A stretch of DNA of 41,880 bases from Candidatus Dojkabacteria bacterium (GTDB lineage: Bacteria > Patescibacteriota > Dojkabacteria > GCA-002793355), in contig CP129470.1 in assembly GCA_030583685.1 (NCBI GenBank), positions 701,412 through 743,291 of the forward strand, given 5' to 3'. Under the pieces are notes generated by a model that did no database searches, was not told the DNA's origin, and worked only from the letters and a program-made list of their open reading frames with translations. Shown one piece after another: positions 8,683 through 10,225 of the stretch; position 1 is the first letter of the stretch; each line of letters starts with the position of its first letter. A program made the position numbers and the translations under genes.

Positions 8683-8712
8683 TTGACGCTGGATAATGAT
8701 TTTTGATATAAT
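8683..8712 (+). promoter_or_regulatory. sigma70-like promoter of the aspS leader
   Basis: TTGACG (8683-8688), 18-nt spacer, TATAAT (8707-8712). Confidence 0.55.
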
Positions 8713-8719
8713 TACCTAA

Positions 8720-8940
8720 TTCCAGTGATTCCGCTAACACGGATGAGGAGACAGAAGAAAGCCTGAGGGCAAGTAGAACTGATCCGGGGGCGCCCGTAAT
8801 TGCGCAATGCTTTGTCGAGTTCCACACTCCGAGAAGCTGATAAGGCAAAACCTGTGAAGGTTTTGCAAAGATAGGGTGGCAGCACGTGAAAACGTCCTTA
8901 TCAGGTACATAAATTTATTTGTATCGAATATGGTAAGGAC
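8720..8940 (+). promoter_or_regulatory. T-box leader (tRNA-sensing riboswitch), apparently translational
   Basis: GAUGAG K-turn-like element at 8742-8747. Stem III hairpin GCAAAACC-ugugaa-GGUUUUGC at 8845-8866. T-box sequence AAAGAUAGGGUGGCAGCACGUG at 8868-8889. Antiterminator: helix A1 8871-8876/8896-8901, 7-nt bulge UGGCAGC 8877-8883, helix A2 ACGU-gaaa-ACGU 8884-8895. A competing 10-bp helix pairs 8894-8903 with 8931-8940 and covers the UG of the AUG at 8930. Confidence 0.75.
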
Positions 8941-10225
8941 CATGATCGACAAATTACACAGAAAGTTAGGTAAGAAAATACTTCTTAAAGGATGGATTCA
9001 TACTATACGACTCCAAGGGAGTGTGATTTTTATTCAATTGAGAGATCGCTCTGGAATCGTTCAGTGTGTTGTTGAGAGAACTTCCCAAGCATTTCAAATT
9101 GCGAAAGGATTGAGTGAGGAATCGGTGGTTTTATTTGCTGGCGTTGTTGTCGAACATCATAAAGTGCTCGAAGTTCACGTTGATAAAGCAGAAGTATATA
9201 GTAAGCCGGAGCAAGCTCTTCCAATTCCTGTAGTTAAAAAAGGACAGGAGGAGACGAATTTAAAGAAGAGGTTAGATTATCGATGGCTAGACTTACGAAG
9301 GCCAGAAAAAAGGCTTATCTTTGAAATTAGTACCTATGTGCATACACTTATGCGTGAATATCTCATCAAGCGCGGCTTTCTAGAAGCCTCTACCCCTAAA
9401 CTTATGGCGAGTCCAAGTGAAAGTAGAGCAGAATTGTTTACCGTTTCTTACTATGGAAAGAAAGCGTATCTTGCCCAGTCTGCGCAATTCTATAAGCAAT
9501 TGGCTATGGCCGCAGGGTTTGAAAAATTCTTTACCTTTGGTGACACTTATCGCGAAGATCCTTCAACAACTGTTTGGCATGTAGCTCAGTTCACGACTCT
9601 CGATATCGAAATGTCGTTTATCGACAAGTTTGAAGACGTGATGCGGTTTGAAGAGAGATTTTTGCATTATGTTCTCAAAAAAGTCAAAAAGAAATATGGC
9701 ATGATTGTTGAGCAAGTATTTGGAACAACAATAATTGTTCCTTCTCTTCCTTTCCCACGCATTACCATGGCTGAAGCGAAAGAGATTGTTCGGGGTGGGA
9801 TGGGTTCTTCTGAAACAGGCGCGGATTTATCGTCTCCTGAAGAGAAGATGCTGTGCGCATATGTTAAGAAGCAATTCGGCCATGAATTCGTATTTTTAAC
9901 AGAGTTTCCTTGGGAAGTAAGGCCGTTTTATCATATGAAGTCTACTGATGAGACAACTCGTAGCGCAGATTTACTCTATAAGGAACGTGAAATAACAACG
10001 ATTGCGCAGCGAGAGCATCGATACCAAGTGCTTGTCGAACAAGTGAGGGAAAAAGGAATGAGGCAGCAAGAAGTTCAGCATTACCTTGATTTCTTTCGTT
10101 ATGGTTGTCCACCGCATGGAGGACTTGGGTTTGGATTCGAGCGATTTCTCAAAATTATGCTTGGATTACCAAACATCCGAGAAACAGTGTTTCTTACAAG
10201 GGATATGAAACGATTGGCACCGTAA
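8930..10225 (+). CDS. aspS: aspartate--tRNA ligase, short archaeal/eukaryal-type (no GAD insertion domain)
   Basis: OB-fold N-terminus GWIHTIRLQGSVIFIQLRDRSGIVQ. Class IIb motifs QSAQFYKQ, FTTLDIEMSF, AQREHR and CPPHGGLGFGFERF. About 430 aa. The GTG at 8876 in the ORF track lies inside the T-box sequence, so I preferred ATG 8930 (or 8942). Confidence 0.85.
   Translation: MVRTMIDKLHRKLGKKILLKGWIHTIRLQGSVIFIQLRDRSGIVQCVVERTSQAFQIAKGLSEESVVLFAGVVVEHHKVLEVHVDKAEVYSKPEQALPIPVVKKGQEETNLKKRLDYRWLDLRRPEKRLIFEISTYVHTLMREYLIKRGFLEASTPKLMASPSESRAELFTVSYYGKKAYLAQSAQFYKQLAMAAGFEKFFTFGDTYREDPSTTVWHVAQFTTLDIEMSFIDKFEDVMRFEERFLHYVLKKVKKKYGMIVEQVFGTTIIVPSLPFPRITMAEAKEIVRGGMGSSETGADLSSPEEKMLCAYVKKQFGHEFVFLTEFPWEVRPFYHMKSTDETTRSADLLYKEREITTIAQREHRYQVLVEQVREKGMRQQEVQHYLDFFRYGCPPHGGLGFGFERFLKIMLGLPNIRETVFLTRDMKRLAP

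Follow-up and report, generated by a model that had tools for sequence, protein, structure and literature searches.

How could a tRNA-responsive RNA switch control translation in a bacterium whose genes show no enrichment of Shine-Dalgarno (SD) motifs, and which tRNA would such a switch read? These questions are raised by the leader of aspS2, a gene for an archaeal-type aspartyl-tRNA synthetase (AspRS) in a genome of Candidatus Dojkabacteria. The window, i.e., the whole stretch of DNA that was analyzed, comprises 41,880 nt (positions 701,412-743,291 of CP129470.1, G000:C1) from a genome that is assembled as one contig (888,748 bp, 41.5% G+C). Coordinates are given in window numbering, except those prefixed with C1, which refer to the contig, and all features described for the window lie on the plus strand. 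aspS2 (8930..10225) encodes 431 aa, with the start codon ATG at 8930-8932 and a second in-frame ATG at 8942. An original prediction, made from these letters without database searches, had placed a T-box riboswitch ahead of an AspRS gene, and this assignment is retained: the aspS2 product matches NF003483 (aspartate--tRNA(Asn) ligase) with 451 bits, compared to a cut-off of 353. We consider it probable that the leader is a T-box with a short Stem I, resembling class II, which senses the charging of tRNA-Asn and controls initiation of aspS2 translation.

The T-box covariance model RF00230 aligns to 8716-8902 over all 219 model positions with 32.6 bits, i.e., E = 1.1e-5 in a local search and 5.7e-6 in a search of the whole genome; in this alignment, only 3 nt stand in for 73 positions of the Stem I model. 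Two further sub-threshold T-box matches in the genome are found upstream of proS and tyrS, and T-box matches were detected in 46 of the 61 genomes in a first sample of the class. For the comparison of leaders, a covariance model (R1) was built from the window leader and one close genomic relative (G004/L004) and searched against 221 class genomes, and the contigs of the eight closest AspRS2 proteins (53-75% identity) were added. The leader is present in all eight of these contigs, and R1 recovered 12 further leaders ahead of AspRS2 orthologues, so that the alignment with the window comprises 13 sequences. In this alignment, which was fitted to the R1 model and hence is biased toward the structure, 95.1% of base-pair cells are standard pairs, compared to ~40% when the partners are slid; 30 of the 40 pairs show changes on both sides, and none of 500 shuffles equaled the observed values. 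A two-sequence comparison that is free of the model yields compensatory changes in Stem III (three pairs), in helix A2 (U-A to C-G), and in the Stem IIA/B pseudoknot (C-G to U-A). On this comparative evidence, the element is a real, selected T-box aptamer.

An exact-pattern scan of viral contigs for the T-box together with the sequestrator strand gave no matches, and a protein-based locus search with AspRS2 over genome and metagenome contigs found the leader in one relative only (L004, identical to G004), the remaining AspRS2 matches having 40-50% identity and no T-box. Likewise, no T-box precedes any of the AspRS1 copies or, within the family, the AspRS2 orthologues that have 44-49% identity (G006, G007, and G009).

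Read from the 5' end, the aptamer opens with an ultrashort Stem I (8720..8750), composed of a basal helix (8720-8723/8747-8750), a K-turn in which AGUGAU (8724-8729) is placed opposite UGA (8744-8746) by the covariance-model alignment, a 4-bp upper helix UCCG/CGGA (8730-8733/8740-8743), and a 6-nt terminal loop, CUAACA. The motif GAUGAG (8742-8747) is the 3' side of this K-turn at the base of Stem I: AGUGA.../...GAUGAGG aligns to the UGA/GAG K-turn columns of RF00230, and relatives preserve the motif despite covariation in the helices on either side of it. The elbow-binding distal platform of Stem I (AG bulge and distal loop) is absent, and Stem I closes with the 6-nt loop. Pairing amounts to 80% in helix 1 and 98% in helix 2 of Stem I, with both-side changes in 7 of their 8 pairs. 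Stem II (8752..8781) consists of CAG/CUG, an internal loop AAGAAA / AAGUAGAA that contains the AGUA/GAA S-turn consensus, GCC/GGC, and the loop UGAG; pairing reaches 97% in its helices 3 and 4, whose six pairs have all changed on both sides. The Stem IIA/B pseudoknot (8785..8805) combines helix IIA, CGG/CCG (8785-8787/8794-8796), with pairing of the IIB loop GCGC (8790-8793) to GCGC (8802-8805). At pair 76:89 of the pseudoknot, C-G occurs three times, U-A eight times, and A-U once (12 of the 13 sequences), and pair 75:90 is G-C in 9 sequences, U-A in 1, and G-U in 1. Together, the K-turn Stem I, Stem II with its S-turn, and the IIA/B pseudoknot form a decoding module of 86 nt.

Between the pseudoknot and Stem III lies an additional linker hairpin (8809..8837), an insertion relative to the Rfam model, in which helices 6 and 7 are 100% paired with double changes in two pairs, and the loop sequence, including CAC-A, is not conserved. 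Stem III (8845..8866) is an 8-bp hairpin, GCAAAACC-UGUGAA-GGUUUUGC, with both-side changes in all eight pairs over the 13 sequences and 94% of cells paired. The T-box core AGGGUGGCAGCACG (8871..8901) forms the antisequestrator, i.e., the 6-bp helix A1 (8871-8876/8896-8901), the 7-nt bulge UGGCAGC (8877-8883), whose UGGC is the predicted partner of a tRNA 3' end GCCA, and the 4-bp helix A2, ACGU-GAAA-ACGU with the loop GAAA (8884-8887/8892-8895). A1 and A2 (helices 9 and 10) are 98-99% paired and show double changes in 6 of 10 pairs. Upstream of the aptamer, a sigma-70-type promoter (8683..8712) comprises TTGACG (8683-8688), an 18-nt spacer, and TATAAT (8707-8712); it scores 11 of 12 matches and has a TG extended -10. 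The distance between TATAAT and Stem I is identical in the leaders of relatives, and transcription is predicted to start at ~8719, at the foot of Stem I. The elements listed in the original prediction, i.e., the TTGACG-18-TATAAT promoter, GAUGAG, the 8-bp Stem III, the antiterminator-like fold of the T-box core, and a 10-bp alternative helix described below, were all recovered at the coordinates given there, and the fold of the core is now accompanied by covariation.

Which tRNA is read can be derived from the position of the specifier. When 11 short Stem I T-boxes of the genus and its sister genus are aligned, the terminal loop always reads NNN-A-C, and the specifier position in same-genus T-boxes is occupied by UAC before tyrS, AUC before ileS, and CGC before argS; the proS leaders retain an internal specifier loop, with CCC. 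By position homology with these sibling T-boxes, the specifier of the window leader is AAC, followed by the 3' purine A, in the Stem I terminal loop (8736..8739). AAC-A is unchanged in 12 of the 13 Asn-type leaders, and the stem closing around it varies among UCCG/CGGA, UGCG/CGCA, GUAG/CUAC, UCUG/CAGA, GCUG/CAGC, and GCAA/UUGC. The genome has three T-boxes, and in each of them UGGN agrees with the discriminator base of the tRNA to which the specifier points (UGGU/A73 for Pro and Tyr, UGGC/G73 for Asn). The single tRNA-Asn(GUU) of the genome and tRNA-Asp(GUC) both have G73, and therefore UGGC cannot separate the two. Judging from specifier position and bulge together, the leader is very probably a T-box that senses tRNA-Asn(GUU) through the specifier AAC.

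The original prediction had named tRNA-Asp as the ligand, and this part had to be replaced. A tRNA-Asp sensor with its specifier elsewhere in the leader, for instance at GAU-A (8839-8842), would agree with the regulated gene being an AspRS gene and with the fit of UGGC to G73 of tRNA-Asp, but G73 is common to tRNA-Asn, and UGGC fits any tRNA with G73. The two candidate specifiers between which the original prediction did not decide, CAC-A (8823-8826) and GAU-A, sit in stretches that vary between relatives and were rejected, whereas the calibrated position holds AAC in the Asn-type leaders. Moreover, true GAC-A leaders exist in Dojkabacteria as a separate kind (L122, before AspRS). We thus regard sensing of tRNA-Asp by the window leader as very improbable.

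As a separate observation, class relatives L122 (G026:C60) and L134 (G055:C70) have GAC-A (Asp) in the same Stem I loop, combined with terminators, and L122 precedes an AspRS gene. With such GAC-A leaders present in other genomes of the class, the Asp type and the Asn type form distinct kinds of leader, and both Asp-sensing and Asn-sensing leaders appear to control AspRS genes in this class.

The regulated enzyme has only PF01336 and PF00152, i.e., an OB anticodon-binding domain and a class IIb core, without the GAD insertion. Its best relatives in the PDB are the archaeal AspRS 3NEL/1B8A and AspRS2 of Thermus thermophilus, 1N9W; residues 3-431 align with chain residues 2-422 of the latter. 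A second AspRS is encoded outside the window, at C1:509772-511067, within a 641-aa open reading frame (ORF) (C1:509772-511700; L104 1375-3300) in which it is fused to an editing domain of the YbaK/ProX type, PF04073. This fused paralogue has no T-box, and it is the sole AspRS in three genus members. In this genome, as in all 11 family genomes, no match to asparaginyl-tRNA synthetase (AsnRS) attains the cut-off. GatB is present (550 bits, C1:809653), ~100 kb from aspS2, so that gatCAB is outside the aspS2 operon. tRNA-Asn has U1-A72 and tRNA-Asp has G1-C72, the difference used in the identity/discrimination rule of GatCAB (PMC4206432). Given the lack of AsnRS, the presence of GatB, and U1-A72 in tRNA-Asn, Asn-tRNA-Asn would be made via Asp-tRNA-Asn, and AspRS2 is a candidate for the enzyme that charges tRNA-Asn.

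How the aptamer could act on aspS2 is suggested by an alternative hairpin (sequestrator, 8894..8940), with an outer helix of 10 bp (8894-8903/8931-8940, GUCCUUAUCA/UGGUAAGGAC) and an inner helix of 6 bp (8904-8909/8920-8925). The outer helix uses the 3' strand of A1/A2 and covers U8931 and G8932 of the start codon as well as codons 2-4, and the internal loop GAAUA holds A8930. The hairpin has a folding energy of -17 kcal/mol (z = -4.98), with none of 200 shuffles folding as well, compared to -8.6 kcal/mol for the antisequestrator alone; these modeled values rank as is usual for T-boxes. The hairpin is succeeded by CAUGAUCGAC, without a U-tract, and no terminator-like site was scored between 8716 and 8960. 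Across six leaders, the sequestering helix is 95.7% paired.

The SD motifs GGAG, GAGG, and AGGA were found upstream of 3-6% of 586 starts, compared to 4-8% at intragenic control positions, a crude test in which they are not enriched; the 3' end of 16S rRNA (~C1:387420-387450, minus strand) retains CCUCC. In a genome without SD enrichment, initiation is expected to be gated by covering the start region instead of an SD. The control of translation by start-codon occlusion that had been proposed for this leader, together with its 10-bp helix over the UG of the AUG, the missing U-tract, and the rare use of SD sequences, thus agrees with these results, and we conclude that the expression platform probably acts by occluding the start codon.

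Base composition upstream of starts was inspected for the 586 long ORFs, and a TAtAaT-like signal was seen at positions -12 to -7 relative to the ATG. Many mRNAs of this genome may accordingly be leaderless.

This reading depends on the choice of the start codon. ATG 8930 is kept in all six close leaders. In one of them, L155, the second ATG is missing, and an in-frame TAA stands three codons before the conserved ATG. The N-terminus M-x-R-T/I is common to AspRS2 orthologues. For a start upstream of 8890, which the original prediction had named as incompatible with it, the sole in-frame codon upstream of 8930 is GTG 8876, inside the T-box sequence, and L155 has the stop. The start of aspS2 is therefore likely to be 8930, and neither 8942 nor GTG 8876, as judged from these alignments. 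Public calls of AspRS2 orthologues (P0001, P0002, P0004, and P0005) either begin at the second ATG (P0001, 427 aa; P0004 and P0005, 429 aa) or extend the ORF upstream across the riboswitch, reaching 520 aa in L152, and GTG 8876 appears in the ORF list of the window. Annotation of this locus is corrected accordingly: public calls probably use the wrong aspS2 ATG or cross the riboswitch, and standard Rfam annotation misses the element.

The calls at the second ATG could be taken at face value. The leader would then be a classical SD-sequestering T-box, starting translation at ATG 8942 with AAGGA (8935-8939) as the SD, which the same helix would hide as in actinobacterial ileS; the called proteins are near-identical, and AAGGA complements CCUCC, which is still present in the 16S tail. 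Yet the spacing between AAGGA and ATG 8942 is only 2 nt, no SD lies at a workable distance from ATG 8930, and the genome as a whole shows no enrichment of SD motifs. In L155, the helix and AAAGGA, which is coding there, occur without a second ATG and with an in-frame stop just before the first one. The M-x-R-T/I N-terminus is conserved in orthologues, and in the alignment with T. thermophilus AspRS2, residue 3 of the 431-aa form falls on residue 2. SD sequestration is accordingly unlikely in our view, and start-codon occlusion at ATG 8930 is retained as the preferred mode.

Several results weigh against a tRNA-Asn sensor that acts on the aspS2 start codon. First, at the gathering threshold of RF00230 (93 bits), the leader is not reported, and only three tRNAs are; the T-box covariance model thus matches end to end at E = 1.1e-5, but with a score below this threshold (32.6 vs. 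93 bits). The score falls short of this cut-off because the distal region of Stem I is deleted. Second, aspS2 and its T-box are missing from three genus members, which makes the module accessory. Third, both AspRS paralogues match NF003483, a model that does not distinguish discriminating enzymes from non-discriminating ones, so that charging of tRNA-Asn can be assigned to neither by this criterion. Fourth, the expectation of covariation was borne out for one part only: A1, A2, and all aptamer helices covary, but the sequestering helix is conserved, with no compensatory double change among six closely related sequences. It shows two one-sided, pairing-preserving changes in the six leaders, which represent one clade and hardly vary in the arms, and its conservation could partly reflect the constraint of the T-box core on one arm and of coding on the other. 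Fifth, when the antisequestrator is forced in nearest-neighbor calculations, opening of the start region costs 12.6 vs. 12.6 kcal/mol in the window, and the gain in five relatives is only 1.3-3.7 kcal/mol; these values are compatible with start-codon occlusion but do not demonstrate it. The lack of an accessibility gain between the ON and OFF states of the window is explained by a local hairpin at ~8917-8954 (AUAUGGU-AAGG-ACCAUGAU and flanks), which re-pairs both AUGs when the antisequestrator forms. This hairpin, UUUGUAUCGAAUAUGGU-AAGG-ACCAUGAUCGACAAA (8917-8954), pairs the AUGs at 8930 and 8942 and is found in four of the six sequences, whereas L063 and L155 have lost its pairing. It may simply result from the sequence that encodes M-V-R-T-M, or the switch may have a third state.

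The low Rfam score, the truncated Stem I, and the absence from three genus members would also be expected of a decaying or non-functional T-box remnant. Compensatory changes have, however, occurred in every helix and in the pseudoknot, and the specifier, the bulge, and the promoter spacing are invariant in relatives down to ~55% protein identity; decay is, of all the explanations that we considered, the one to which we assign the smallest probability.

More informative on the mode of action is the comparison with distant relatives. Leaders of AspRS2 orthologues at 57% identity or less (L156-L159), and those from other families (L065, L081), share the AAC T-box but continue into a hairpin with a U-run, and in these terminator-type leaders aspS starts 120-300 nt beyond the terminator. 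Relatives at 60% or higher AspRS2 identity all have the AUG-covering helix, and a U-run after the hairpin is found in none of the six close relatives. The third codon, for Arg, is the one that faces CC of the T-box 3' strand in the helix. All six sequestrator-type genes have AGG here, and all five terminator-type genes have AGA; with 7.5%, AGG is used less than any other Arg codon in the genome. Among 17 T-boxes of the family, with five specificities, nearly all have a hairpin that uses the A1 3' strand and ends on, or a few nt from, the start codon; the hairpin arm sequences differ by specificity class, and a U-tract is found in none of the 17. Two proS leaders (G001, G002) have a similarly placed hairpin that is built from adjacent sequence. 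The split between terminator and helix, the AGG codon, and the placement of hairpins in the family support selection for the sequestering helix, as far as can be told from these comparisons.

The terminators of the distant relatives can also be read in the opposite direction. The same Asn T-box could regulate transcription or mRNA fate, with 8894-8940 serving as a U-less terminator or pause signal, or as an entry determinant for a nuclease or Rho, inherited from an ancestral terminator; the classical terminator stands at the homologous position in those relatives, and the modeled difference in start accessibility between ON and OFF is little or none for the window. In addition, there is a weak terminator-like site at 9010-9032 (a 5-bp stem and GTGATTTTTA), 80 nt inside the aspS2 coding sequence. 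But one such site per 800 nt is the level of shuffled sequence (0.7 +/- 0.9 expected by chance), no U-run follows the hairpin in any of the six close relatives, the 3' arm of the hairpin lies inside the coding sequence and includes the AUG, and the sibling T-box hairpins end at or beside their own start codons, which termination does not need. Control of transcription or mRNA fate therefore appears unlikely, and occlusion of the start codon remains the reading that we follow below.

It is also possible, although we would put it slightly short of probable, that this lineage (the genus of the window and its near relatives) rebuilt its T-boxes (Asn, Pro, Tyr, Ile, and Arg) into a sub-class in which the antisequestrator 3' strand pairs with start codons or first codons and not with an SD or a terminator arm, with the conversion traceable at aspS2, where AGG would have been recruited, and with tRNA-Asn triggering a dedicated or back-up AspRS. 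If this were true, a tRNA-sensing switch would have been adapted to SD-independent initiation, and the back-up AspRS could serve the tRNA-dependent Asn route or insure against loss or inhibition of the main AspRS.

Two further arrangements were encountered among the relatives. In the metagenome contigs L156 (142-600) and L157 (226-700), whose AspRS2 has 55-57% identity, the order is AAC T-box, terminator, tRNA-Asp(GTC) and tRNA-Asn(GTT), and aspS2, so that the T-box appears to head an operon containing the gene of its own ligand. In L085 (G220:C73, 1-981, minus strand), an AAC/UGGC T-box stands ahead of a gene of the Peptidase_S66 (LD-carboxypeptidase) family, and not of AspRS, and the alternative helix covers a GGGGGAG Shine-Dalgarno sequence. 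The S66 family includes MccF, the immunity enzyme against microcin C, and microcin C inhibits AspRS; this hints at a tRNA-Asn-triggered resistance response.

Beside the observed T-box homology, covariation, specifier position, match of bulge and discriminator, alternative helix, lack of a terminator, and gene content, we place an inferred course of tRNA binding, switching direction, and initiation block. The Stem I terminal loop would present AAC to the GUU anticodon of tRNA-Asn, and the 3' GCCA of an uncharged tRNA-Asn would pair with UGGC (8877-8880), stabilizing the antisequestrator (8871-8901). With the tRNA charged or absent, the 3' strand of the antisequestrator would pair with 8931-8940, burying the UG of the AUG and the first codons; a hairpin of -17 kcal/mol over the start would then block the 30S subunit in a genome that initiates without SD pairing. 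AspRS2 would be made when Asn-tRNA-Asn is low, Asp-tRNA-Asn being its obligatory precursor. Since Asn-tRNA-Asn needs Asp-tRNA-Asn, it is physiologically sensible to tie an AspRS to the charging state of tRNA-Asn, and this arrangement points to tRNA-Asn charging as a monitored bottleneck where Asn-tRNA is made only by transamidation.

T-boxes are regarded as regulators of Gram-positive bacteria, and the translational form has been described almost only for ileS of Actinobacteria (PMC7583486, PMC7778990). Translational T-boxes are described as controlling access to the SD or ribosome-binding site (PMC7583486, PMC7778990), and TBDB sought them only in Actinobacteria (PMC7778990). A full-text search found no literature that pairs the T-box with the Candidate Phyla Radiation (CPR), Patescibacteria, or Saccharibacteria. 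In the ultra-small CPR genome studied here, a minimal decoding module of 86 nt would serve several amino acids. The platform at the start codon, in the absence of SD enrichment, makes riboswitch gating of SD-independent initiation testable, and the relatives provide a natural series from terminator to sequestrator within one orthologous leader.

The leader shares with class I T-boxes (RF00230; Bacillus subtilis tyrS and glyQS) the T-box core, A1/A2 with the 7-nt bulge, Stem III, the K-turn, and a specifier followed by a purine, but lacks their internal Specifier loop with an S-turn, the AG bulge/distal loop platform, and the terminator with a U-tract. With the terminator-type Asn T-boxes from other class genomes and metagenome contigs (L065, L081, and L156-L159), it has in common an ultrashort Stem I that carries AAC-A, Stem II, the pseudoknot, Stem III, the UGGC/UGGU bulge, and the orthologous AspRS2; those leaders differ in the hairpin with a U-run, in AGA as Arg codon 3, and, in L156/L157, in the intervening tRNA genes.

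In Clostridium acetobutylicum, an Asn-specifier T-box reportedly controls an operon of a non-discriminating AspRS and GatCAB (work attributed to Saad et al., 2012, J Biol Chem 287:20382). The Asn T-box on the AspRS/GatCAB operon of this species is also cited in PMC4206432, and one of its three aspS copies is T-box-regulated (PMC2494555). Both T-boxes would respond to tRNA-Asn and control an extra AspRS for the tRNA-dependent Asn route, and in both genomes only one of several aspS paralogues is T-box-regulated. The clostridial system, in a Firmicute, has a long Stem I and a terminator, whereas the aspS2 leader has an ultrashort Stem I, its operon does not include gatCAB, and it probably controls translation.

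Translational T-boxes on actinobacterial ileS, reportedly treated by Sherwood, Grundy, and Henkin in 2015, share more of the architecture found here. Those of Mycobacterium tuberculosis, M. smegmatis, and Nocardia farcinica belong to class II, with a short Stem I and a hidden SD (PMC7583486), and structures of actinobacterial ileS T-boxes include PDB 6UFM, as cited in PMC10651847. They resemble the aspS2 leader in the short Stem I without an elbow platform, the K-turn, the Stem II S-turn, and the IIA/B pseudoknot (PMC10651847, PMC7583486), and also in the size of the decoding module, which is 86 nt here and 87 and 99 nt in the T87 and T99 constructs (PMC10651847). Stem III and a UGGN bulge are likewise common to both, and in both the place of antiterminator and terminator is taken by an antisequestrator and a sequestrator. 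The SD is hidden in actinobacterial ileS (PMC7583486), whereas in aspS2 the helix hides the AUG and codons 2-4, with no functional SD evident; moreover, the specificity here is Asn and not Ile, the gene is an accessory AspRS and not ileS, the host belongs to the CPR/Patescibacteria, and there is the additional linker hairpin (8809-8837). The leader is thus most likely a variant of the translational T-box, a known RNA switch in a form that suits a genome not using Shine-Dalgarno sites.

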